From Chitinophagaceae bacterium (GTDB lineage Bacteria; Bacteroidota; Bacteroidia; Chitinophagales; Chitinophagaceae): DNA of 64,000 nt. This document shows, in pieces, positions 20,294 to 64,000 of this stretch. The first letter of the stretch is position 1. Every line of letters begins with the position of its first letter. The position numbers and the translations under genes are program-made. The notes beneath the pieces were generated by a model. It was not told the origin of the DNA. It saw only the letters and a list, made by a program, of their open reading frames with translations, and searched no databases. The DNA lies in the NCBI GenBank assembly GCA_051006655.1, contig JBPCSZ010000038.1, positions 3,990 to 67,989 of the forward strand. Reading direction: 5' to 3'.

Positions 20294-20398
20294 GGCACAA
20301 GATTACTCAATTCCCCCTAAAGCCCACTAACCCCTTTCCAATAGGGTATAAAATGCGATTTTCGGCACTTAAAAAACGCATTCGGGCCTTTTTTGACG

Positions 20399-20406
20399 TA
20401 CATTTG
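20399..20406 (+). promoter_or_regulatory. Bacteroidota-type -7 box (TAcaTTTG) of queA
   Basis: TACATTTG lies 20 nt upstream of ATG 20426. It falls inside the longer track ORF (TTG 20393), which argues for the shorter start. Confidence 0.45.
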
Positions 20407-20425
20407 CACCCCTAATTACCTGTCC

Positions 20426-21475
20426 ATGAAGTTATCGCAATACGTTTACGATTTACCCCAAAACTTAATTGCCCAATCGCCGGCTAAGAACCGCGAAGAC
20501 AGTAAGCTAATGGTTTTTCACAAAGACAGTGGTAAAATTGAACACAAACACTTTCGCGACATCCTCGAATATTTCGACGATAAAGACGTGATGGTGGTGA
20601 ACAATACCAAAGTTTTCAACGCCCGTTTATATGGCCGTAAGGAAAAAACAGGTGCTAAAATTGAAGTGTTCTTATTGCGCGAACTCAACAAACAAAACCG
20701 TTTGTGGGATGTGGTGGTTGAACCCGCCCGCAAAATTCGTGTAGGTAATAAATTGTATTTCGGCGACGATAATTCCTTGGTAGCCGAAGTGGTAGACAAT
20801 ACCACCTCGCGCGGTCGTACCATTCGTTTCTTATTCGAAGGTTCGCACCAAGAATTGAAAACCATCCTCGATAATATGGGCGAAACACCGTTGCCCCGTT
20901 ATATCAAACGCAAACCCGATGCGTCGGACAAAGACCGTTACCAAACCGTATATGCCAAGCACGAAGGTGCGGTGGCAGCCCCTTCGGCCGGCTTGCATTT
21001 CAGTCGTGAATTGGTAAAACGTTGCGAAATTAAAGGCATTCGCTTCGCCGAAATCACCTTGCACACCGGTTTGAGCACTTTCCGCCCCATTGAAGTAGAA
21101 GATATCAGCAAACACAAAATGGATGCCGAATATTATTCTGTCGATGAAATGGCTTGCAAAGTGGTGAACCGCGCCAAAGAAGAAGGCCGTCGCATTTGCG
21201 CCGTAGGCACCTCGTCCATCCGCGCCATGGAATCGTCGGTAACTACTACGGGCATGTTGAAACCCAGCACCGGTTGGACGAACATCTTCATTGCACCGCC
21301 TTACGATTTCTCCTTGAACAATTCTTTAATTACCAGTTTCCATTTACCCAAAACCAGCTTGCTCATCATGACGGCCGCCTTTATGGGCTACGAACAAGCC
21401 ATGGAAGCCTATAAAGTGGCCATTAAAAATAAATACCGCTTCTTCAGCTACGGCGATGCGTTATTGGTAATCTAA
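20426..21475 (+). CDS. queA: S-adenosylmethionine:tRNA ribosyltransferase-isomerase
   Basis: [30 protein letters not shown] and the C-terminal [12 protein letters not shown] are the canonical QueA ends. Confidence 0.9.
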
Positions 21476-21496
21476 GTCATTCAATTTCTATTCAAA

Positions 21497-21521
21497 AGGC
21501 GGAATTTTTTCCGCCTTTTTT
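21497..21521 (+). terminator. Rho-independent terminator of queA
   Basis: GGCGGA-auuuuu-UCCGCC hairpin followed by T7. Confidence 0.7.
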
Positions 21522-21534
21522 TATGTTATCAATA

Positions 21535-21607
21535 TTCTCGCTCGCACTCGCACTGACTTTCCGGCCCTCCTGCGGACGGGCTAAACCCTGCTTATCCCTC
21601 ACGCACC
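21535..21607. repeat. GC-rich intergenic element (short family member)
   Basis: TTCTCGCTCGCACTCGCACTGACTTTCCGGCCCTCCTGCGGACGGG...CCCTCACGCACCC. Its reverse complement shares AGTGCGAGTGCGAG and GTGAGGGA words with 55190-55225 and 42555-42575. Confidence 0.45.
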
Positions 21608-21674
21608 CAAACCTTGATGTATTTTCAACCATACTCATGCCTACATTGAAAAACAAACTTGAATTCCCCCAAAC

Positions 21675-21965
21675 ATCAGTATCTGCTTGGCCCGAGAAAA
21701 ATAGCGTGAAGAAAATGACGATTTTTATCGAAGAAATAAAAACACAATTCATCCGCTAAATAAAGTTCCTCCCTTGGGTTCTATCTAATTAAGTTGAATA
21801 ATGCGATGCCGATGCATAGCTTTTTTATTTCCGATCAAAATTGTCATTTTTAGCTATTTTTCGAAAGCCTTGAATTTTTGCTACTTTTTTTTCAAGAAAA
21901 AAGTAGAACGAAAAACTCTAAAGAATCTTGTTGGTGAAAAACACCAACAAGGGCTTCTCTAAAAC
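21675..21965 (+). repeat. Dispersed intergenic module, copy 1 (long repeat plus two hairpins), immediately upstream of the helicase-nuclease gene
   Basis: 21696-21884 aligns with 63809-64000 at roughly 88% identity by eye. Hairpin 1 is CTACTTTTTT-N6-AAAAAAGTAG (21881-21906). Hairpin 2 is CTTGTTGGTG-N5-CACCAACAAG followed by GGCTTCTCTAAA (21927-21963). Confidence 0.8.
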
Positions 21966-22033
21966 CCCATGTTTTTTCCGCGGGCGGCCATTCATTTTTT
22001 GTCCATTCCTAAACAATAACCTACATTTAATTT

Positions 22034-25000
22034 ATGACACTCAACAGAACCTTTCTCAGCATATTAAAAAAGAAACTCAGCTACGGCAGTACCCGCTCGG
22101 TATTATTAAATTGTATTCCCGGCCGACTCATCAGTCGCCTAGCTCTCAACGATTTTGACATAGCCCAAACCGGTTCAGCCCAAACCTTCCTCGATACCCT
22201 ATTGAACGAAAAGTCCTTTACGTTTACCCTCCCTATTGCATTTAATACCATCACCGAAACCATGAGCGAGGCCGAACAAGAAGCCCTCGTAAAAGCCAAT
22301 GGCGAAAAAACAAAACTCGAAAAACGCCTTGCGTCCCTGCAATACGACCACGATGATTTCGAAAAAGAATACGGTGTTCAAACGTTTGGTTTTGGCTTCC
22401 CACTCATCGTACGTCGCAATCCGAACGATTTAACAAAGATGATTGTGGCGCCCTTGTTTATATGGCCCCTTCAAATTAAAAAAAGTTATACCCGTAATCG
22501 GGAATGGCAAATTATTCGCGACCCCGAACAACCCATTCGCGTGAATGAAGCCTTGCGCGCTTATTTAAAAACAGAACAACATTTAGAACTTCCCGTACCG
22601 GCCGATGACGTGCTCGATGACGGCTTATTGAATGCCGATGAATTAAATGCCTTCATGCAACGTTTGCAATCGCTTTGGCCCGAAATGCAATGGCCTATAG
22701 CGGGTTGGCAAATCACGCCCTTGCCTGCTAGCATGGATGTTCAAAAAGAATCGGCCACATCACCCCGCATTATTGCAGAAGGCGTATTTGCCTTGTACAA
22801 AAACTTGAAACAAAGTTTAATTCAAGATGTTGAAATATTGCTGAGCGAAGAAGCCAATCAATTAGAAACCGATCCGCTCGATGCTTGGTTTCATAAAAGT
22901 AGTCCCGTGAATGTCGATCCCAGTCAACACGCGGTTTTACGTTCCTTAGCCAAAGAAAATCGCGTTGTTATTCAAGGTCCGCCCGGCACCGGGAAAAGCC
23001 AAACCCTTACTGCCATCATTGCCACCGCCCTCACCAATCAAAAAAAGATATTGGTGGTGTGCGAAAAACGAACGGCCTTGGAAGTGATTTATAATAACCT
23101 CATAAAACGCTTTCCCTTCTTACAACCCGCCATTGCATTTGTAGAAGATGTAAGTAGCGACCGACAAACCATTGTGAAGCAATTTCGTGAACGCGAATCG
23201 GGTAGCCTCCTCACGATGTCCGATACCATCACCGAAACCGCCAAACAAGAATCCGACGAATTTGAAACATTAATTGAATCGCTGGAACAACATTATGGCA
23301 CGCTTCGTTTAAAAATAAAAGACAATAAACGTTGGGCCGACTGGGTGGCTGAATGGTTAGCGGCCCGTGTACCCACAGCCCAAATGCCGGCCTATGCCTT
23401 ATTGGCCAAATCGGTTTCAGCCCCTTCGGCCGGTGCCGGTATGGCGCAAGCGGTGTCTTGGTTGAAAAAAGCCCAACAAGCCTATCAAGCAGCAGCGCAA
23501 GAAGGCTTCACCATGAAGCGCTATTTTCAACCCAACTATGCAAACAATGCCGTCGATATTATTCGGCAATTACGCAATGCCCAATTTGAACTCAACAATT
23601 TATTGAAAGTTTGGGAAGGGCGTGTTGGACAAGTTGAAGCGACTGCGAAAGCAAAGTCGAATGAAGCACGTGCCACTTGGGAGCATGACTTGCAACAATG
23701 GCAAATGGCATTACAAAGTACTTCCGGACAACTCAGCGACCCATATTCAATTTCGTTTGTTGAAAGTATGCGTTTGTTGTTTGGTGGCTCTGCCATCAAA
23801 GAAGCCGTTCGCCAAGCCAATCATTACCGTCAATCTTTCTTCGATTTATGTACGCGTTTAAATACTCCACCTTTAGATCATATCGACGCCGTTCGCAATC
23901 ATTTAAATGAACTTCAAGCGGCGTTTGTACAAACCGAAGTACAACGTGCTACACAAGCGCAAAGCGATTTAAACGCTGAACAAGCCCGCATTGAACGTGC
24001 TTTGTCGTCCATCGAACCAAACCTGCAAGCCATGTTGATTATCCCATCGTGGCAAGGTTCTTTATTGAGCAAAATGCAGGCTATGCAAGGACTATTGCAC
24101 GAATTATTATTGAACGAAAATGGCATCACCTTGTATTGGCAATGGCGCGAATTAGAGTTGGCACCCGATGCTTCGGTGAAATCCATTTTGCCTTTATTGC
24201 AAGAACATACATTTCCCGATTGGGCCGACGCTTATCGTTTAGCCCAAGTATACACCTTGTTGGATGCATACCAACAAAAAAATACCTTGTTGCGCGATGA
24301 AACTGCTTTAGATACTGTTCGAAGTGTGATGCAACAACTGGCAGGCGTTCAAGAACAAGCCATGGAAAAGTATATTCACGATGCCTTTCAAACGGGGTTA
24401 CGCCATATTGCCGCGCGTGGCTTCGAACCCAAAAAATTATACAACCTCAAAGGCAGTGCCGGTACCACGCGAAATTCCTTGCGTAAAATAGTTCAGTTTT
24501 CGCCCGAATCCTTTTTGCAAATTCATCCCTTGGTATTGGCCAATCCTTCTACCTGTAGTTCCTTATTCCCCATGGAATCAGGCTTTTTCGATTTAGTGAT
24601 TTTCGATGAAGCGAGTCAACTCCGCATTGAAGATACCTATATGGCTTTGTTGCGTGGTAAAGCTGTGGTGGTTTCGGGCGATAGCCAACAAATGCCACCC
24701 TCTTCGTATTTCGAATCGAATAATTTATTGCTCGACGATTCCGATTTAAGCGATGATGTAGACAGTTTATCGGATCAAGAAAGAATGTTAGAAGAATCGA
24801 ATTTAGAAATGGCCGGCAAAGAATCCTTATTGGAATGGGCCATTGAAGAAGGATACTGCGAAACCAGTTTGGATATGCACTATCGTTCTCGTCATCCCGA
24901 TTTAATTGAGTTTTCCAATGCCTGTTTCTACCGTTCGCGTTTAGTGCCCATGCCCGAAACGGAGTTCGATATACCCATTCGCTTCTATCAAGTGGATGGT

Positions 25001-25912
25001 GTGTACGATAAACGCGTGAATGAAAAAGAAGCCGATGAGGTGATTCGTTTATTGCGCGATGAAATTCCTAATACGGTATCTGTTGGGGTGGCCACGTTTA
25101 ACCTCACGCAACGGAATTTAATTCTCGATAAAATCAGCGAAGCCCGTACCGCCGATCCGGATTTTCATGCCAAAATGGGCGCCCTCGATCAACTGGGTTT
25201 CTTCGTGAAAAATTTAGAAAATATTCAAGGCGATGAACGCGATGTACTGATTCTCAGCACCACCTTCGGGGTTAGGCCCGACGGCAAATTCATCATGAAC
25301 TTTGGTCCGTTAACGCAACGGCATGGACACCGCTTGTTGAATGTAATCATCACTCGAGCCCGTTCTACCGTGCATGTGTTAACGTCAATTCCTGTAAACC
25401 GACAAACAGAATATCGACAAGGTATTGAAGCGGAAGGGCGGGTGAGTGGTAAATCGGGACTCTTAGCCTATTTGCAATATGCGCGTTTTGTGAGTGAAGG
25501 CAATAACGAAGCCAAAAACGAATTGTTGCAATTCATTCAAATGCAAGTCTCCAAATCGAATTTAGAACGAAGTGCTATGGCCGGTTTAACGGAATCGCCC
25601 TTCGAAGAAGAAGTGTATGATTATTTAGTGCAAGCAATAGGTAAAGACCGCATTGTGCCTCAATACCGTTGCGGTGGATTCCGTATCGATTTGGTGGTTA
25701 CACTGCCCGGACAAGAACGTAAAATTGCCATTGAATGCGATGGGGCGGCTTATCACAGCGATGAACTTACCTGGCATCACGATATTTACCGTCAACAACA
25801 ATTGGAAGCACAAGGTTTTGTCTTTCACCGCATATGGTCTACCCGCTGGTGGGAAAACCAAGTGGCTGAGGAAATGCGCTTAATTGAATTCATTCGTTCT
25901 TACGAAGCGTAA
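22034..25912 (+). CDS. DUF4011-like / Upf1-like SF1 helicase fused to a C-terminal Vsr/DUF559-like (PD-(D/E)xK) endonuclease domain
   Basis: 1292 aa. N-terminal FGFGFPLIVRR..IVAPLFIWPLQI is DUF4011-like. The helicase motifs are Walker A GPPGTGKS (about aa 315), motif II VIFDEASQ (about aa 855), GDSQQMPP, HYRSRH, IQGDERDVLILS and RLLNVIITRAR. The C-terminus FRIDLVV..KIAIECDGAAYHS..HRIWSTRWW is DUF559/REase-like. Confidence 0.85.
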   Translation: MTLNRTFLSILKKKLSYGSTRSVLLNCIPGRLISRLALNDFDIAQTGSAQTFLDTLLNEKSFTFTLPIAFNTITETMSEAEQEALVKANGEKTKLEKRLASLQYDHDDFEKEYGVQTFGFGFPLIVRRNPNDLTKMIVAPLFIWPLQIKKSYTRNREWQIIRDPEQPIRVNEALRAYLKTEQHLELPVPADDVLDDGLLNADELNAFMQRLQSLWPEMQWPIAGWQITPLPASMDVQKESATSPRIIAEGVFALYKNLKQSLIQDVEILLSEEANQLETDPLDAWFHKSSPVNVDPSQHAVLRSLAKENRVVIQGPPGTGKSQTLTAIIATALTNQKKILVVCEKRTALEVIYNNLIKRFPFLQPAIAFVEDVSSDRQTIVKQFRERESGSLLTMSDTITETAKQESDEFETLIESLEQHYGTLRLKIKDNKRWADWVAEWLAARVPTAQMPAYALLAKSVSAPSAGAGMAQAVSWLKKAQQAYQAAAQEGFTMKRYFQPNYANNAVDIIRQLRNAQFELNNLLKVWEGRVGQVEATAKAKSNEARATWEHDLQQWQMALQSTSGQLSDPYSISFVESMRLLFGGSAIKEAVRQANHYRQSFFDLCTRLNTPPLDHIDAVRNHLNELQAAFVQTEVQRATQAQSDLNAEQARIERALSSIEPNLQAMLIIPSWQGSLLSKMQAMQGLLHELLLNENGITLYWQWRELELAPDASVKSILPLLQEHTFPDWADAYRLAQVYTLLDAYQQKNTLLRDETALDTVRSVMQQLAGVQEQAMEKYIHDAFQTGLRHIAARGFEPKKLYNLKGSAGTTRNSLRKIVQFSPESFLQIHPLVLANPSTCSSLFPMESGFFDLVIFDEASQLRIEDTYMALLRGKAVVVSGDSQQMPPSSYFESNNLLLDDSDLSDDVDSLSDQERMLEESNLEMAGKESLLEWAIEEGYCETSLDMHYRSRHPDLIEFSNACFYRSRLVPMPETEFDIPIRFYQVDGVYDKRVNEKEADEVIRLLRDEIPNTVSVGVATFNLTQRNLILDKISEARTADPDFHAKMGALDQLGFFVKNLENIQGDERDVLILSTTFGVRPDGKFIMNFGPLTQRHGHRLLNVIITRARSTVHVLTSIPVNRQTEYRQGIEAEGRVSGKSGLLAYLQYARFVSEGNNEAKNELLQFIQMQVSKSNLERSAMAGLTESPFEEEVYDYLVQAIGKDRIVPQYRCGGFRIDLVVTLPGQERKIAIECDGAAYHSDELTWHHDIYRQQQLEAQGFVFHRIWSTRWWENQVAEEMRLIEFIRSYEA

Positions 25913-25973
25913 TAGATGTTACATACATTCGAATAATTTTATAGCATCTTTGCCGTTTAACGCATTCTTCATT

Positions 25974-26783
25974 ATGGAAATTATTGCATTTATATTGGCC
26001 GCTTTGGTAGGGGTTTCGCTTGGACTCATTGGGAGCGGGGGCTCTATTCTTACCGTGCCGATTTTGGTGTATATCTTAGGTGTGAATCCGGTATTGGCCA
26101 CCGCGTATTCCTTGTTTATTGTGGGCTCAACCGCCTTGGTGGGTGGCATTCAGAATGCCATGAATAAATTAGTAGATTTTAAAACCTTATTCATTTTTGG
26201 TATTCCTTCCATTATTGCGGTGTACGCTACGCGTTCATTCATTATGCCTATCATTCCCGAAACGGTTTTAACCATAGGCGGATTTACCTTGAACAAACCT
26301 ATGGCCTTAATGCTATTGTTTGCTGTCATCATGATATTGGCTTCCTTGTCGATGATTCGAACCCCTAAAACACAAAATACCGCTGTCGATGAAAATGCCC
26401 CTTTACAGTATAATTATCCCATGATTTTGTTGGAAGGTACTGTGGTGGGCGTATTAACCGGATTGGTAGGTGCCGGTGGTGGATTCTTAATTATTCCGGC
26501 CTTGGTATTATTGGCCAAAATGCCCATGAAAAAAGCCGTAGGTACTTCCTTGTTTATCATCGCGGCTAAATCCCTTATCGGCTTCATTGGCGATTTACAA
26601 GGGAATGAAGTGATCGATTGGATGTTGCTGGGTGGATTCACCTTTTTTGCCGTATTAGGCATTTTTATTGGTATTTATTTATCGAAGCGCGTGCCTTCTG
26701 CCGGACTTAAAAAAGGCTTCGGTTGGTTTGTATTGGTGATGGGGATTTATATCATCATTAAAGAAACTTTATTGAAGAAATAA
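25974..26783 (+). CDS. TauE/SafE (TSUP) family sulfite/organosulfonate exporter
   Basis: About 270 aa with 7-8 TM helices and the duplicated G-rich motifs GLIGSGGSILTVPILVY and GLVGAGGGFLIIPALV. The start is taken at ATG 25974 (MEIIAFILAAL) rather than the track start 25884, which overlaps the helicase gene. Confidence 0.8.
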   Translation: MEIIAFILAALVGVSLGLIGSGGSILTVPILVYILGVNPVLATAYSLFIVGSTALVGGIQNAMNKLVDFKTLFIFGIPSIIAVYATRSFIMPIIPETVLTIGGFTLNKPMALMLLFAVIMILASLSMIRTPKTQNTAVDENAPLQYNYPMILLEGTVVGVLTGLVGAGGGFLIIPALVLLAKMPMKKAVGTSLFIIAAKSLIGFIGDLQGNEVIDWMLLGGFTFFAVLGIFIGIYLSKRVPSAGLKKGFGWFVLVMGIYIIIKETLLKK

Positions 26784-26820
26784 TAGGGTATTGACAATCT
26801 CTATTGTGGGTGTATTTTTA

Positions 26821-26836
26821 TGTGACAAATGTCACG
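26821..26836. promoter_or_regulatory. CRP/FNR-type palindrome TGTGA-N6-TCACG
   Basis: TGTGACAAATGTCACG matches the TGTGAnnnnnnTCACA consensus at 9 of 10 positions (core GTGACA-NN-TGTCAC). Its centre lies about 30 nt upstream of the TAAATTTG -7 box. Confidence 0.4.
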
Positions 26837-26857
26837 AAAACCCTCCACTTGGTCATT

Positions 26858-26865
26858 TAAATTTG
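26858..26865 (+). promoter_or_regulatory. Bacteroidota-type -7 box (TAaaTTTG) of the persulfide dioxygenase gene
   Basis: TAAATTTG lies 18 nt upstream of ATG 26883. Confidence 0.45.
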
Positions 26866-26882
26866 CTTAAAATTTTTCAATT

Positions 26883-28298
26883 ATGCACATAGAACAAATT
26901 TACACCGGTTGTTTAGCCCAAGGCGCTTACTACATTACTAGCAACGGGGAAGCTGCCATCATCGATCCCCTTCGTGAAATAAAACCTTATCTCGATCGCA
27001 TTCAACGCGATGGGGTGGTTTTAAAATATATTTTTGAAACCCATTTTCATGCCGATTTCGTTTCCGGGCATGTCGACTTAAGTAAACAAACCGGAGCGCC
27101 TATTGTTTACGGTCCAACAGCCAAACCTGAATTCGAGGCCTTGGTAGCGACCGATGAACAAATATTTTCAATTGGAAATATTAAAATTAAAGTGTTGCAT
27201 ACACCGGGGCATACCATGGAAAGCACCACGTATTTACTCATCGATGAAGAAGGAAAAAATCATGCCATCTTCACCGGCGATACCTTGTTTTTAGGTGATG
27301 TTGGTCGCCCCGATTTAGCTCAAAAAGCCGCTAGCCTCACGCAAGAAGAATTGGCCGGTTTATTGTACGATAGTTTGATGACTAAAATTATGCCTTTAGC
27401 CGATGACGTAATTGTTTACCCTGCCCATGGCGCCGGTAGTGCTTGTGGGAAGAATATGATGAAGGAAACTGTTGATACCTTAGGGCATCAAAAAGAAATG
27501 AACTATGCCTTGAATCAACCAAACAGAGAAGCTTTCATTCAAGCCGTAACGGATGGCTTAACGCCACCTCCCGGTTATTTTGGTATGAATGTGGCTATGA
27601 ATAAAAAAGGATATGCTTCTTTCAACGAAGTATTGAATCACGGCATGCGTGCATTGTCGCCGGCCGAATTTGAAGCCGCGGCTGAAGAAACAGAAGCTTT
27701 GATTTTGGACACTCGTTCGGCCGATGACTTTTCAAAAGGATTTATTCCACAATCGATTAATATTGGTTTAGGAGGCGATTTTGCACCTTGGGTAGGGGCT
27801 TTGATTGTAGATGTGAAACAACCTTTGTTGTTGATTACCGAACCCGGTCGTGAAGAAGAGGCCATTACCCGTTTGAGTCGCGTTGGCTTCGATCATATTT
27901 TAGGTCATTTACAAGGTGGCTTTGCTTCATGGCAAGCTGAAAATAAAGAAGTGGATACCGTGAACCGAATCACTCCGGAAACTTTTGCCGAACAAGTGGA
28001 CGTGAATAAGGACATGATTATAGATGTGCGCAAAGAAGGCGAATATTCCGCTGAACACGTTGAAAATGCTTACAGCAAACCCTTGGCTTATATCAACGAA
28101 TGGATTAAAGATATTCAACCCGATACCCATTTCTTTTTACATTGTGCCGGAGGCTATCGCAGTATGATGGCAGCGTCTATTTTACAAGCCCGCGGATATC
28201 GTAATTTCAGTGAAGTGGCCGGCGGTTTTAATGCTATTGCTAAAACAACCGTACCTAAAACCGATTATGTTTGTCCCTCGAAAATGATTAAACTCTAA
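26883..28298 (+). CDS. MBL-fold persulfide dioxygenase fused to two rhodanese domains (CstB-like)
   Basis: 471 aa. The metal motif is ETHFHADFVSGH with a GDTLFLGDVGRPD block. The first rhodanese-like domain has no active-site Cys. The second carries the catalytic loop HCAGGYRS. Confidence 0.85.
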   Translation: MHIEQIYTGCLAQGAYYITSNGEAAIIDPLREIKPYLDRIQRDGVVLKYIFETHFHADFVSGHVDLSKQTGAPIVYGPTAKPEFEALVATDEQIFSIGNIKIKVLHTPGHTMESTTYLLIDEEGKNHAIFTGDTLFLGDVGRPDLAQKAASLTQEELAGLLYDSLMTKIMPLADDVIVYPAHGAGSACGKNMMKETVDTLGHQKEMNYALNQPNREAFIQAVTDGLTPPPGYFGMNVAMNKKGYASFNEVLNHGMRALSPAEFEAAAEETEALILDTRSADDFSKGFIPQSINIGLGGDFAPWVGALIVDVKQPLLLITEPGREEEAITRLSRVGFDHILGHLQGGFASWQAENKEVDTVNRITPETFAEQVDVNKDMIIDVRKEGEYSAEHVENAYSKPLAYINEWIKDIQPDTHFFLHCAGGYRSMMAASILQARGYRNFSEVAGGFNAIAKTTVPKTDYVCPSKMIKL

Positions 28299-38571: not shown

Positions 38572-40134
38572 TCAATCGAAAAGAGTTGCATAGGTAGATT
38601 CGATATTCTTGACTTCTCTGTCTGTCAACATGACGAACTCCTTTTCTCTGGCTCGTTTTGACAATACGCCCTGGTTTTGTTCTAGGACCCGAACTAATGT
38701 TGATACCATCTTATCTGGCATTTCATATTCCTCTTCCATGTACTTTTTGAACGAATCATAATTAGCCAAGAACTTAATTTCCTGTGGCACGATATTCTTT
38801 ATAGTATCCTCCACACAATCAAAAAGAAATTCAGCCTGACGGGTTGCATCAAAGAAACGATAATAGTCTAAAGTCTGGTTGATTACTTTTACGTTGTGAT
38901 CTGGCGTTTCTTCCCATTCAATAAAATCCAACAATGGTTTAGAATATAATTCCAAAACTTTTTGATAATCTTGGATATGATTCAAAATGGATGACGACAC
39001 CGGAAAAATAATGCCCTGATCCGTAAACCCTTTTTTGGCCAATAGGTGATGAATCAAATAACGGTGAATTCTTCCATTCCCATCTTCAAATGGATGAATA
39101 AAAACAAATCCGAATGCGACCATAGCAGCAGCAACAATAGCATGTATGTCATCCTTGATGAGCATTTGATTAGTATAAATCAAACCGTCAATTAGATCTT
39201 CTAAATCTTCATGCCTAGCTGAAATATGGTCAGGGATTGGCTCACCCGTAGAACGATCATGTTCGCCAACGAAGCCTCCTTTTTCCCTGAAGCCCATATC
39301 AACAAATCGGCTATTTTCTATAACCAGTTGCTGCAAGCGGATTAATTCGTCCTTGGTTAAGTCGTTTAGACCTGCCTGTCCGATTGCAGTACCCCACCGA
39401 GCGGCTCTCTTACTCTTGGGGCTTTCCCCCTCTATAGTAAAGGATGCCTTTGAATCTTTTAGCAATAAGAAAGCTGAAGCTCTTTGAATAATATCTTTTC
39501 GGATACCTGCAATTTGCATCCTGTTTAATTCAATGTAATCTTTTGCTAAGTGCGTTTCGATTTTTTTCGTTTTGCGCACCAGCGCACAAAACCTCCTTGT
39601 GCCAGGCAAGTTGTTCAACACTAAATGTCTGGGTGACTTTATTCCTGTTATTCCAAATTGCAATTTTTCGTCTATTACAGGTATATAGCTCTTTTTGGAT
39701 AGGTCGTTTTTGCCATTAATTAGACTTCCCGATACCCATTCCAAAAGAAACCATATCCTTCTAGAATACTGACCCAATGGTTCGATATTCACGAGCTCCA
39801 GCAACTCTGTATTGTTTAATTTCTCTTGCAACTTTGCGAAAAGCAATAAATCAACCCCCTCATATTTGAGCGCAAAAACCAAATGGTTAAATAGTGCTTC
39901 AACCCGGGTAAGCCCCATATGGTCTTGAGGCAAATAGGCATAGGGTAAGACTATCCATTCGTCTGTTTTTACTTGATGAGTCCTTTCTGATACCATGGCT
40001 TTCAGCAATGGTAGTGGCATCTCCAATTTAAACTTCTCAATAATTGCGGCATACCCAACTAACCAACCAGTGAATGGTTTCGCTTCTCCCTGAATTATGG
40101 GCGCAATGTTTGAAAAATGGGCGCTATCATTCAT
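38572..40134 (-). CDS. Fic/DOC family protein (AMPylase-type), 520 aa
   Basis: The Fic core motif HPFEDGNGRIHRYL is at aa 347-360. An inhibitory-helix-like motif SFTIEG ([ST]xxxE[GN]) is at aa 231-236. The roughly 220-aa N-terminal and 130-aa C-terminal regions have no family I can name. Confidence 0.9.
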   Translation of the reverse strand: MNDSAHFSNIAPIIQGEAKPFTGWLVGYAAIIEKFKLEMPLPLLKAMVSERTHQVKTDEWIVLPYAYLPQDHMGLTRVEALFNHLVFALKYEGVDLLLFAKLQEKLNNTELLELVNIEPLGQYSRRIWFLLEWVSGSLINGKNDLSKKSYIPVIDEKLQFGITGIKSPRHLVLNNLPGTRRFCALVRKTKKIETHLAKDYIELNRMQIAGIRKDIIQRASAFLLLKDSKASFTIEGESPKSKRAARWGTAIGQAGLNDLTKDELIRLQQLVIENSRFVDMGFREKGGFVGEHDRSTGEPIPDHISARHEDLEDLIDGLIYTNQMLIKDDIHAIVAAAMVAFGFVFIHPFEDGNGRIHRYLIHHLLAKKGFTDQGIIFPVSSSILNHIQDYQKVLELYSKPLLDFIEWEETPDHNVKVINQTLDYYRFFDATRQAEFLFDCVEDTIKNIVPQEIKFLANYDSFKKYMEEEYEMPDKMVSTLVRVLEQNQGVLSKRAREKEFVMLTDREVKNIESTYATLFD

Positions 40135-41027: not shown

Positions 41028-41044
41028 TTTATCTTACAGTTCAG

Positions 41045-41129
41045 CGGAGAGAGAGGGATTCGAACCCCCGGACCTGTTACAGTCAACGGTTTTCAAGACC
41101 GTCGCAATCGACCACTCTGCCATCTCTCC
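41045..41129 (-). tRNA. tRNA-Ser (anticodon UGA)
   Basis: The reverse complement is GGAGAGATGGCAGAGTGGTCGATTGCGACGGTCTTGAAAACCGTTGACTGTAACAGGTCCGGGGGTTCGAATCCCTCTCTCTCCG. It shows a cloverleaf with anticodon loop CT-TGA-AA and a long variable arm. Confidence 0.9.
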
Positions 41130-63725: not shown

Positions 63726-64000
63726 GAATCTTGTTGGTGATAACACCAACAAGGGCTTCTCTAAACACAAATTTGTATTCCACAATCATCAATCTCGGCT
63801 CGGCCTTAGAAAAATAGCGTGAAGAAAATGACGATTTTTATCGCAGAAATAAAAACACAATTAAACCGATGAATTAAGTTCAATCGTTGGGTTCTATCTA
63901 ATGAAGTTGAATTTAACGATGCCGATGCATAGCTTTTTTATTTCCGATAAAAATTGGCATTTTTAGCTATTTTTCGGAAGCCGAAGTTTTTTGCTCCACT
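63726..64000 (+). repeat. Dispersed intergenic module, copy 2 (truncated by the window edge)
   Basis: The hairpin CTTGTTGGTG-N4-CACCAACAAG followed by GGCTTCTCTAAA is at 63730-63765. The long repeat 63809-64000 is about 88% identical to 21696-21884. Here the hairpin precedes the long repeat instead of following it. Confidence 0.8.

Follow-up and report, generated by a model that had tools for sequence, protein, structure and literature searches.

A compact DUF4011 helicase-nuclease from a Chitinophagaceae genome, related to Prometheus and Hhe, is a candidate single-gene defence protein

Introduction

What does a large helicase-nuclease do when its gene stands alone between queA and a sulfur-oxidation cluster? 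The question is raised by a stretch of 64,000 nucleotides (nt) from a Chitinophagaceae bacterium (GenBank assembly GCA_051006655.1, contig JBPCSZ010000038.1, positions 3,990 to 67,989 of the forward strand), referred to here as the window, in which a single open reading frame (ORF) at 22034-25912 encodes a protein of 1292 amino acids (aa). A first-pass annotation, made from the letters of the window alone, had described this protein as a DUF4011-like, Upf1-like helicase fused to a nuclease, and as a candidate single-gene nucleic-acid defence or surveillance protein. Two named families of anti-phage helicase-nucleases turn out to be its closest counterparts, namely Prometheus (ProA) and Hhe. 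The latter is an Escherichia coli single-gene defence, listed as HheA in DefenseFinder, and was reportedly first described by Vassallo et al. in 2022. The comparisons below suggest that the window protein is a relative of both families and a member of neither, and that it is probably an accessory enzyme of defence or nucleic-acid surveillance acting on its own.

Domain architecture and predicted structure

The gene (P0001; 22034-25912, forward strand, as are all its domains) begins with ATG, contains no internal stop and occurs once in the genome; every motif quoted in the first-pass annotation was found at its expected place. The proposed architecture of a DUF4011 domain, a split Upf1-like SF1B core and a C-terminal Vsr/DUF559-type nuclease also stands, with Pfam DUF4011, AAA_11, AAA_12 and MTES_1575 each matching above the gathering score. 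The N-terminal domain (aa 1-275; 22034-22858) includes DUF4011 (PF13195; aa 43-178; 22160-22567) at 36.5 bits against a cut-off of 22.2, and carries the motifs FGFGFPLIVRR (118-128) and IVAPLFIWPLQI (137-148). The first part of helicase domain 1A (aa 295-400; 22916-23233) corresponds to AAA_11, which scores 59.7 bits over aa 296-382 and a second stretch, and holds a Q-like motif DPSQ (295-298), motif I GPPGTGKS (315-322) and motif Ia CEKRTALE (343-350). The second part of domain 1A and domain 2A (aa 800-1120; 24431-25393) follow after a long interruption and contain AAA_12 (aa 929-1117, 52.6 bits) together with motifs II DEASQ (858-862), III GDSQQMPP (882-889), IV HYRSRH (949-954), V QGDERD (1065-1070) and VI ITRAR (1106-1110). 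The distance from Walker A to motif II is 536 aa, and the spacer is as rich in Q, A and L as had been noted (A 13.2%, L 11.7% and Q 9.7% over aa 400-800).

The nuclease closes the protein. MTES_1575 (PF18741) matches aa 1190-1287 (25601-25894) along its whole profile (positions 1-96 of 96; 93.6 bits, 8.3e-27), and the C-terminal motifs FRIDLVV (1216-1222), IAIECDGAAYHS (1231-1242) and HRIWSTRWW (1265-1273) lie within it; D1219, E1234, D1236 and H1241 are the candidate catalytic residues of this PD-(D/E)xK domain. Two of the domains that the first-pass annotation had named for a profile scan did not follow suit: DUF559 stays below threshold (17.4 bits against a cut-off of 20.6), and DUF3320 gives no Pfam match in the protein at E <= 0.1. 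The protein ends only 5 residues beyond the MTES_1575 domain, and DUF3320 is thus absent.

AlphaFold2 models were obtained for aa 281-1292 (predicted local distance difference test, pLDDT, 86.6; predicted template modelling score, pTM, 0.73) and for aa 1-300 (pLDDT 84.8, pTM 0.78). The larger model consists of two RecA domains, an all-alpha insertion at aa ~398-794 (23225-24415) whose longest predicted helices reach 58 residues, a helical linker and a nuclease core of alpha-beta-beta-beta-alpha-beta topology. Foldseek matched this model to Upf1, IGHMBP2, SETX/Sen1, Aquarius, Dna2, nsp13, ZNFX1 and SLFN11 (E 2e-10 to 6e-5, probability 1.0 throughout; Upf1, IGHMBP2, SETX/Sen1, Dna2, nsp13 and ZNFX1 fall between 2e-10 and 1e-6), and a phmmer search of the PDB returned IGHMBP2 at 2e-9. 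We are therefore confident that the core fold, as modelled, is Upf1-like. The N-terminal domain has no fold match in the PDB (best E 0.29) and a single match in BFVD, a 440-aa 'AAA domain protein' from a Myoviridae contig (E 3.7e-5).

The two-RecA fold and the full set of motifs are shared with Upf1, IGHMBP2, Sen1/SETX, Dna2, ZNFX1 and SLFN11, although sequence identity to the eukaryotic Upf1-like helicases is only 15-22%. Dna2 likewise joins an SF1B motor to a PD-(D/E)xK nuclease; however, its nuclease is N-terminal and Cas4/RecB-like, whereas that of the window protein is C-terminal and of the Vsr/MTES_1575 type. Neither the 400-aa helical insertion nor the DUF4011 domain has a counterpart in solved structures. 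A core fold nearest to Upf1, IGHMBP2, SETX/Sen1 and Dna2 would also suit a housekeeping role in genome maintenance, in which a Sen1/SETX- or Dna2-like helicase-nuclease clears R-loops, flaps or stalled intermediates of transcription or replication from the cell's own chromosome. We consider that role unlikely, mainly for reasons of distribution and context that are given below.

Relationship to Prometheus and Hhe

The best PADLOC matches by far are PDC-S37 (1.5e-142, 475 bits) and Hhe (1.4e-71), and the top NCBIfam matches are ProA (457.8 bits) and Hhe (310.4 bits). The curated equivalog cut-offs, 1500 bits for ProA (NF058533) and 2000 bits for Hhe (NF042953), are not reached, so that the protein, which NCBIfam and the PADLOC check proposed in the first-pass annotation place next to these systems, falls inside neither. 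The ProA profile aligns to aa 399-1289 from position 845 to 1705 of 1903, spanning the insertion, and leaves positions 1706-1903 unmatched, as are positions 1341-1550 of PDC-S37. The Hhe profile aligns to aa 811-1284 (positions 1241-1677 of 1797), and the PADLOC Hhe model to aa 815-1276 only (239 bits). The window protein and five further family members score 465-495 bits on PDC-S37, in each case over the second helicase half and the nuclease.

Three sister species of the same genus (G018, G020 and G007) served to calibrate these comparisons, as they carry canonical ProA ORFs of 1720-1936 aa. The ProA model gives 2105.8 bits for the first and 1981.5 bits for the second, and one sister-species ProA matches PDC-S37 from end to end (positions 7-1545 of 1550, 1185 bits), which indicates that PDC-S37 and ProA are one family and that the models work in this lineage.

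Like ProA, the window protein is a single polypeptide with an N-terminal DUF4011 domain, a DNA2/Upf1-like SF1B helicase with a large insertion in its first RecA domain and an MTES_1575-type nuclease, and it shares with ProA an accessory distribution. Unlike ProA, it measures 1292 rather than ~1900 aa, its N-terminus being shorter by ~450 aa. Hhe, too, combines DUF4011 with an SF1 helicase and a Vsr-like nuclease in a single polypeptide, but only the second helicase half and the nuclease of the window protein align to it, and Hhe is ~1800-1900 aa long. On these profile comparisons the window protein is a relative of ProA and Hhe and a member of neither; it belongs to a compact family of ~1300 aa, a three-module variant without DUF3320, whose architecture is itself already known and named. 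The earlier remark that this order of domains had not been functionally characterised is accordingly out of date, since the layout defines both Hhe (PMC11482910) and Prometheus/ProA (PMC13700489).

In a tree built from 493 C-terminal columns, the window protein falls within a clade of ~1300-aa proteins (Shimodaira-Hasegawa-like approximate likelihood-ratio test, SH-aLRT, 99), and forms of 1336-1600 aa are set apart by a 99% branch. An attempt to place ProA in the same tree was abandoned as meaningless, its branch amounting to 4.2 substitutions per site.

According to PMC13700489, which cites Van den Berg et al. 2024 (Cell Host Microbe 32:1427), Prometheus/ProA is a defence made of one protein, has been validated by experiment and is related to eukaryotic enzymes that act on R-loops. 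This last kinship lends something to genome maintenance as well. PMC11482910 takes Hhe to be a functioning single-gene defence of the helicase-nuclease type and reports T7 DNA-metabolism genes and Bas63 gp40 as its candidate triggers; neither these triggers nor the counter-defences to Hhe carry information that can be transferred to the window protein. A literature search under the name PDC-S37 returned nothing.

Other comparisons drawn in the first-pass annotation proved weak. The PADLOC model of Nhi matches only at the P-loop (aa 302-347, E 4.3e-4), and those of Mokosh, MkoA (98 bits) and MkoC (81 bits), are confined to the helicase part; Pfam finds no PLD domain in the protein and the locus holds no Mokosh partner gene. 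Membership of both systems was therefore rejected. DpdJ and GajB of PADLOC likewise match only generic helicase or P-loop parts.

The sister-species ProA genes have a further feature. Each is preceded, at a distance of 10-13 nt, by a conserved 421-aa DUF2130 gene (3e-87), at L141:2030-3295, L142:1505-2770 and L143:1621-2886 in G018, G020 and G007, respectively. The system has been described as a single protein; the pairing points to a two-gene arrangement. DUF2130 also adjoins one compact homolog, from Arenibacter (L087). The window gene differs from these ProA genes in having no DUF2130 gene directly upstream, and none was found in its genome.

Conservation and selection

To locate the constrained parts of the compact family, 35 homologs of 38-82% identity were aligned (alignment A1). 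All seven SF1B motifs (I, Ia, II, III, IV, V and VI) are invariant across this set, as are many residues of the N-terminal domain. The nuclease is nearly as well kept, with D1236 found in 35/35, H1241 in 34/35, D1219 in 32/35 and E1234 in 30/35 sequences. Three of the 35 have G at the position of D1219 and three have A at that of E1234; these may be nuclease-inactivated variants, judging by the substituted residues.

The insertion behaves differently. Relative to the closest ortholog (82% identical, locus L045), the helicase core is 93-100% identical, whereas aa 441-720 (23354-24193), the hypervariable core of the insertion, are 33-72% identical to that ortholog and 8-21% identical across the family, with almost no indels despite this low identity. 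The ratio of nonsynonymous to synonymous substitution rates (dN/dS), computed against the same ortholog, is 0.10 for the whole gene, 0.02 and 0.03 for the two helicase parts (aa 295-400 and 800-1120), 0.24 for aa 441-720 and 0.92 for aa 601-640. The gene is thus under purifying selection, the hypervariable part of the insertion excepted. Positive selection within the insertion was considered and set aside: synonymous divergence is saturated (dS ~1.3), so that the values of 0.24 and 0.92 denote faster protein evolution and do not separate relaxed constraint from diversifying selection.

Distribution and synteny

The genome from which the window derives (2.76 Mb, 165 contigs, 94% complete) has freshwater Chitinophagaceae metagenome-assembled genomes as its nearest named relatives. 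The helicase-nuclease gene is present in 2 of the 25 species of its genus, the only other carrier among the remaining 24 being G008 (72% identity); three others possess ProA in its place and the rest possess neither. It is absent from 13 of the 17 genera sampled in the order. The 23 congeneric species that lack the gene are for the most part at least 90% complete. Absence from so many congeners makes a housekeeping function unlikely, as a gene of that kind should not be dispensable so often.

Synteny conveys a similar picture. Both queA and a divergent photolyase gene occur in the whole genus, but the order of queA, helicase and TauE sulfur cluster is found only in the window genome and in G008. 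In the other species, a marker of the sulfur cluster (an MBL-rhodanese gene) lies elsewhere, either on other contigs or, in the single-contig G011, 117 kb away; the helicase gene therefore stands at a synteny breakpoint. At L045 the helicase gene is again followed by the sulfur cluster. Beyond such close relatives the synteny is lost, which is a further point against a role in housekeeping. Upstream of the helicase gene at L045, in place of queA, is a pair of genes (L045:386-1089) encoding an HEPN-like substrate-binding protein and a minimal nucleotidyltransferase (MNT), which resembles a type VII toxin-antitoxin module.

On a wider scale, relatives occur in 469 of ~185,000 species genomes. 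Most are found in Bacteroidota or Ignavibacteria, with sporadic representatives in Gammaproteobacteria, Spirochaetia, Patescibacteria and Mollicutes.

Genomic neighborhoods of homologs

The first-pass annotation had asked whether orthologs sit in defence islands, and the answer is divided: recognizable defence systems or integrases lie within two genes of the homolog at ~10 of 51 loci, but most neighbor families are of the housekeeping type, and the window gene itself lies among housekeeping genes. The census behind this figure took in the next two ORFs to the left and to the right of the homolog at the 51 loci, giving 189 proteins that were searched in two batches (89 and 100 proteins). PADLOC matches among them include Avs4 (E 0), HamB (4e-245), GajA, GajB, Old and mad5, with subunits of type I restriction-modification (RM) systems at ~4 loci; matches to GmrSD came from Pfam. 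In total, 118 and 122 Pfam families were detected in the two batches and none recurs at more than 3-4 of the 51 loci, indicating that the helicase-nuclease has no conserved partner.

Two of the loci that were inspected individually share one arrangement, in which the helicase gene lies between type I RM and GmrSD genes, with genes for an integrase and a WYL regulator close by, and in Polluticoccus soli an integrase is found upstream and a type I RM system downstream. The recurrence of RM, GmrSD, Gabija, Hachiman, Avs and integrase genes among the neighbors argues against chromosomal maintenance, as does the fact that both of the nearest named families are anti-phage.

The integrases, which adjoin several homologous loci, also bear on a third explanation, namely that the gene is cargo of a mobile element, once serving that element, for example by excluding competitors or by addiction, instead of protecting the host, and left behind in the chromosome when the element decayed. 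Its position at a synteny breakpoint would fit such a history, as would adjacent toxin-antitoxin genes (the MNT/HEPN pair of L045, and HicB at one individually inspected locus) and the similarity of the N-terminal fold to a protein from a Myoviridae contig. The window locus itself offers no trace of an element: no integrase or transposase is near the gene, no tRNA lies within 9 kb of it, and the only direct or inverted repeats around it are short and at chance level. The gene has moreover been stably inherited with its neighbors across three related genomes. We judge stranded cargo to be distinctly improbable; in practice this explanation overlaps with defence and the two are hard to separate.

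Proposed function

Taken together, the placement by PADLOC and NCBIfam next to Hhe and ProA/PDC-S37, the accessory distribution within the genus and the defence neighbors at some loci uphold the candidacy for single-gene defence put forward in the first-pass annotation. We favor, with moderate confidence, a stand-alone accessory enzyme of defence or nucleic-acid surveillance, a compact relative of Prometheus/ProA and Hhe; by analogy with these two, an anti-phage role would be the most likely one.

Several observations weigh against this assignment, some of which speak equally for housekeeping. The GC content of the gene (0.44-0.47) is the same as that of its flanks, with no compositional sign of recent transfer, and the flanking sulfur genes have diverged as the helicase has (69-86% aa identity, similar dS). 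Together these suggest an old, stable resident of a small lineage rather than a recent insertion; such co-divergence with chromosomal neighbors, along with the strong purifying selection, is what a maintenance enzyme would display. The locus lies outside any defence island, with queA and the sulfur-oxidation cluster as its neighbors, a stable context that would suit the same role. Many homologs likewise stand alone among housekeeping genes: at least 2 of 7 individually inspected contexts are purely housekeeping, three species of Ignavibacteria have one housekeeping context in common, and most of the neighbor families in the census are of this type. Furthermore, Pseudomonas aeruginosa has a large DUF4011 gene among its core genes (PMC10250203). 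On the side of the protein, both equivalog cut-offs are missed more than threefold, and the window protein lacks the C-terminal DUF3320 of ProA, which PMC13700489 counts among four domains that are all reported as essential in Prometheus. Our literature searches found no functional test of the compact family. Finally, the association with defence genes is an enrichment in a qualitative sense only: the 89 and 100 census neighbors gave 231 and 291 PADLOC family matches against 6 for 55 window ORFs (3 of these 6 from one Fic protein), a crude comparison in which the PADLOC RM models are redundant and the control consists of window ORFs rather than matched random genes.

If the protein does act in defence, its Upf1/Dna2-type SF1B motor would load on a single-stranded 5' tail, a flap or an R-loop-like intermediate of an invading replicon and translocate 5'->3' using ATP. 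In doing so it would deliver the Vsr-like PD-(D/E)xK endonuclease at the C-terminus of the protein to the duplex for nicking or cutting, and the DUF4011 domain and the fast-evolving insertion may gate or target this activity as a sensor or an autoinhibitory surface. We infer the polarity and the substrate from characterized SF1B helicases and the cleavage of DNA from the Vsr/PD-(D/E)xK family; the sensor role of the insertion is likewise putative. A more specific version, which we put forward only tentatively, has the compact clade as a separate, minimal branch of Prometheus/Hhe that works without DUF3320 and uses the insertion at aa 441-720 as its specificity module. In that case, the surface of the insertion should diversify under phage triggers or inhibitors, and swapping insertions between orthologs should re-target the defence.

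What emerges is a sound annotation rather than the discovery of a new type of system. Its interest lies in a family that is naturally minimized, being ~600 aa shorter than Prometheus/Hhe, devoid of DUF3320 and equipped with one clearly delimited hypervariable segment. Should it prove active, it would be a convenient system in which to sort the modules for sensing from those for killing and to study the structure of DUF4011, a fold without a solved counterpart. It would also help to annotate the defensomes of the Bacteroidota and the Ignavibacteria, in which the present equivalog models overlook this family.

The locus and its upstream repeat

As the first-pass annotation had it, the gene is solitary between queA (20393-21475) and a gene for a sulfite exporter (TauE), which is followed by the sulfur-oxidation cluster. 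The TauE ORF as listed starts with TTG at 25884 and overlaps the helicase gene; this is probably not the true start, which is likely the ATG at 25977. From the helicase stop to that ATG there are 64 nt with no terminator-like site, and read-through from the helicase gene into the sulfur-oxidation cluster is possible. The queA-helicase spacer measures 558 bp and contains the queA terminator (21494-21519). An Rfam scan of 21000-27000 gave nothing near any gathering score.

The same spacer holds the repeated non-coding module that the first-pass annotation had seen upstream of the gene. The repeat is real, but it has no connection with the gene. It is a dispersed element of ~225-290 bp resembling a miniature inverted-repeat transposable element (MITE), located at ~21672-21963 with a second copy at ~63763-64000, and BLAST finds 63 matches in the genome, 31 of them of at least 200 nt, on 21 contigs; 6 are no more than 300 nt from a contig end. 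Its inverted arms are ~45 nt long with a terminal 11-bp hairpin, and as RNA it would fold into a long hairpin (-54.8 kcal/mol, z-score -5.0). The orthologous spacers of G008 (221 bp) and L045 (75 bp) lack it. Given this dispersal and its absence from both close orthologs, the repeat was rejected as a part of the system and is best seen as a MITE-like element that landed there by chance.

These details bear on a last explanation, by which the gene is tied to its local neighbors, either through the repeat acting as a regulatory or guide element or through co-expression with the sulfur cluster for a shared function. The position of the repeat directly upstream, the short distance to TauE and the helicase-TauE adjacency, which is kept in both closest relatives (G008 and L045), are what such a tie would predict. 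The copies of the repeat throughout the genome and its absence upstream of the orthologs tell against the first form; the second is countered by the remaining species of the genus, all of which have the sulfur cluster but not this helicase, and by distant homologs having unrelated neighbors. A tie of this kind is largely refuted already and we regard it as very improbable indeed.

Other candidate defence genes in the window

Elsewhere in the window, a 520-aa Fic-domain protein is encoded at 38572-40134 on the reverse strand, beside tRNA-Ser (41044-41129). It matches PADLOC PDC-S24 (4e-180), SoFic (1e-21) and Pfam Fic. These matches make it another candidate for single-gene defence; it lies 12.6 kb downstream of the helicase gene. 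The PADLOC models mad2 (1e-16), mad3 (2e-28) and mad8 (6e-11) were each matched by a single protein among the 55 window ORFs other than the helicase gene; these may be generic matches to ATPase- or kinase-type proteins.

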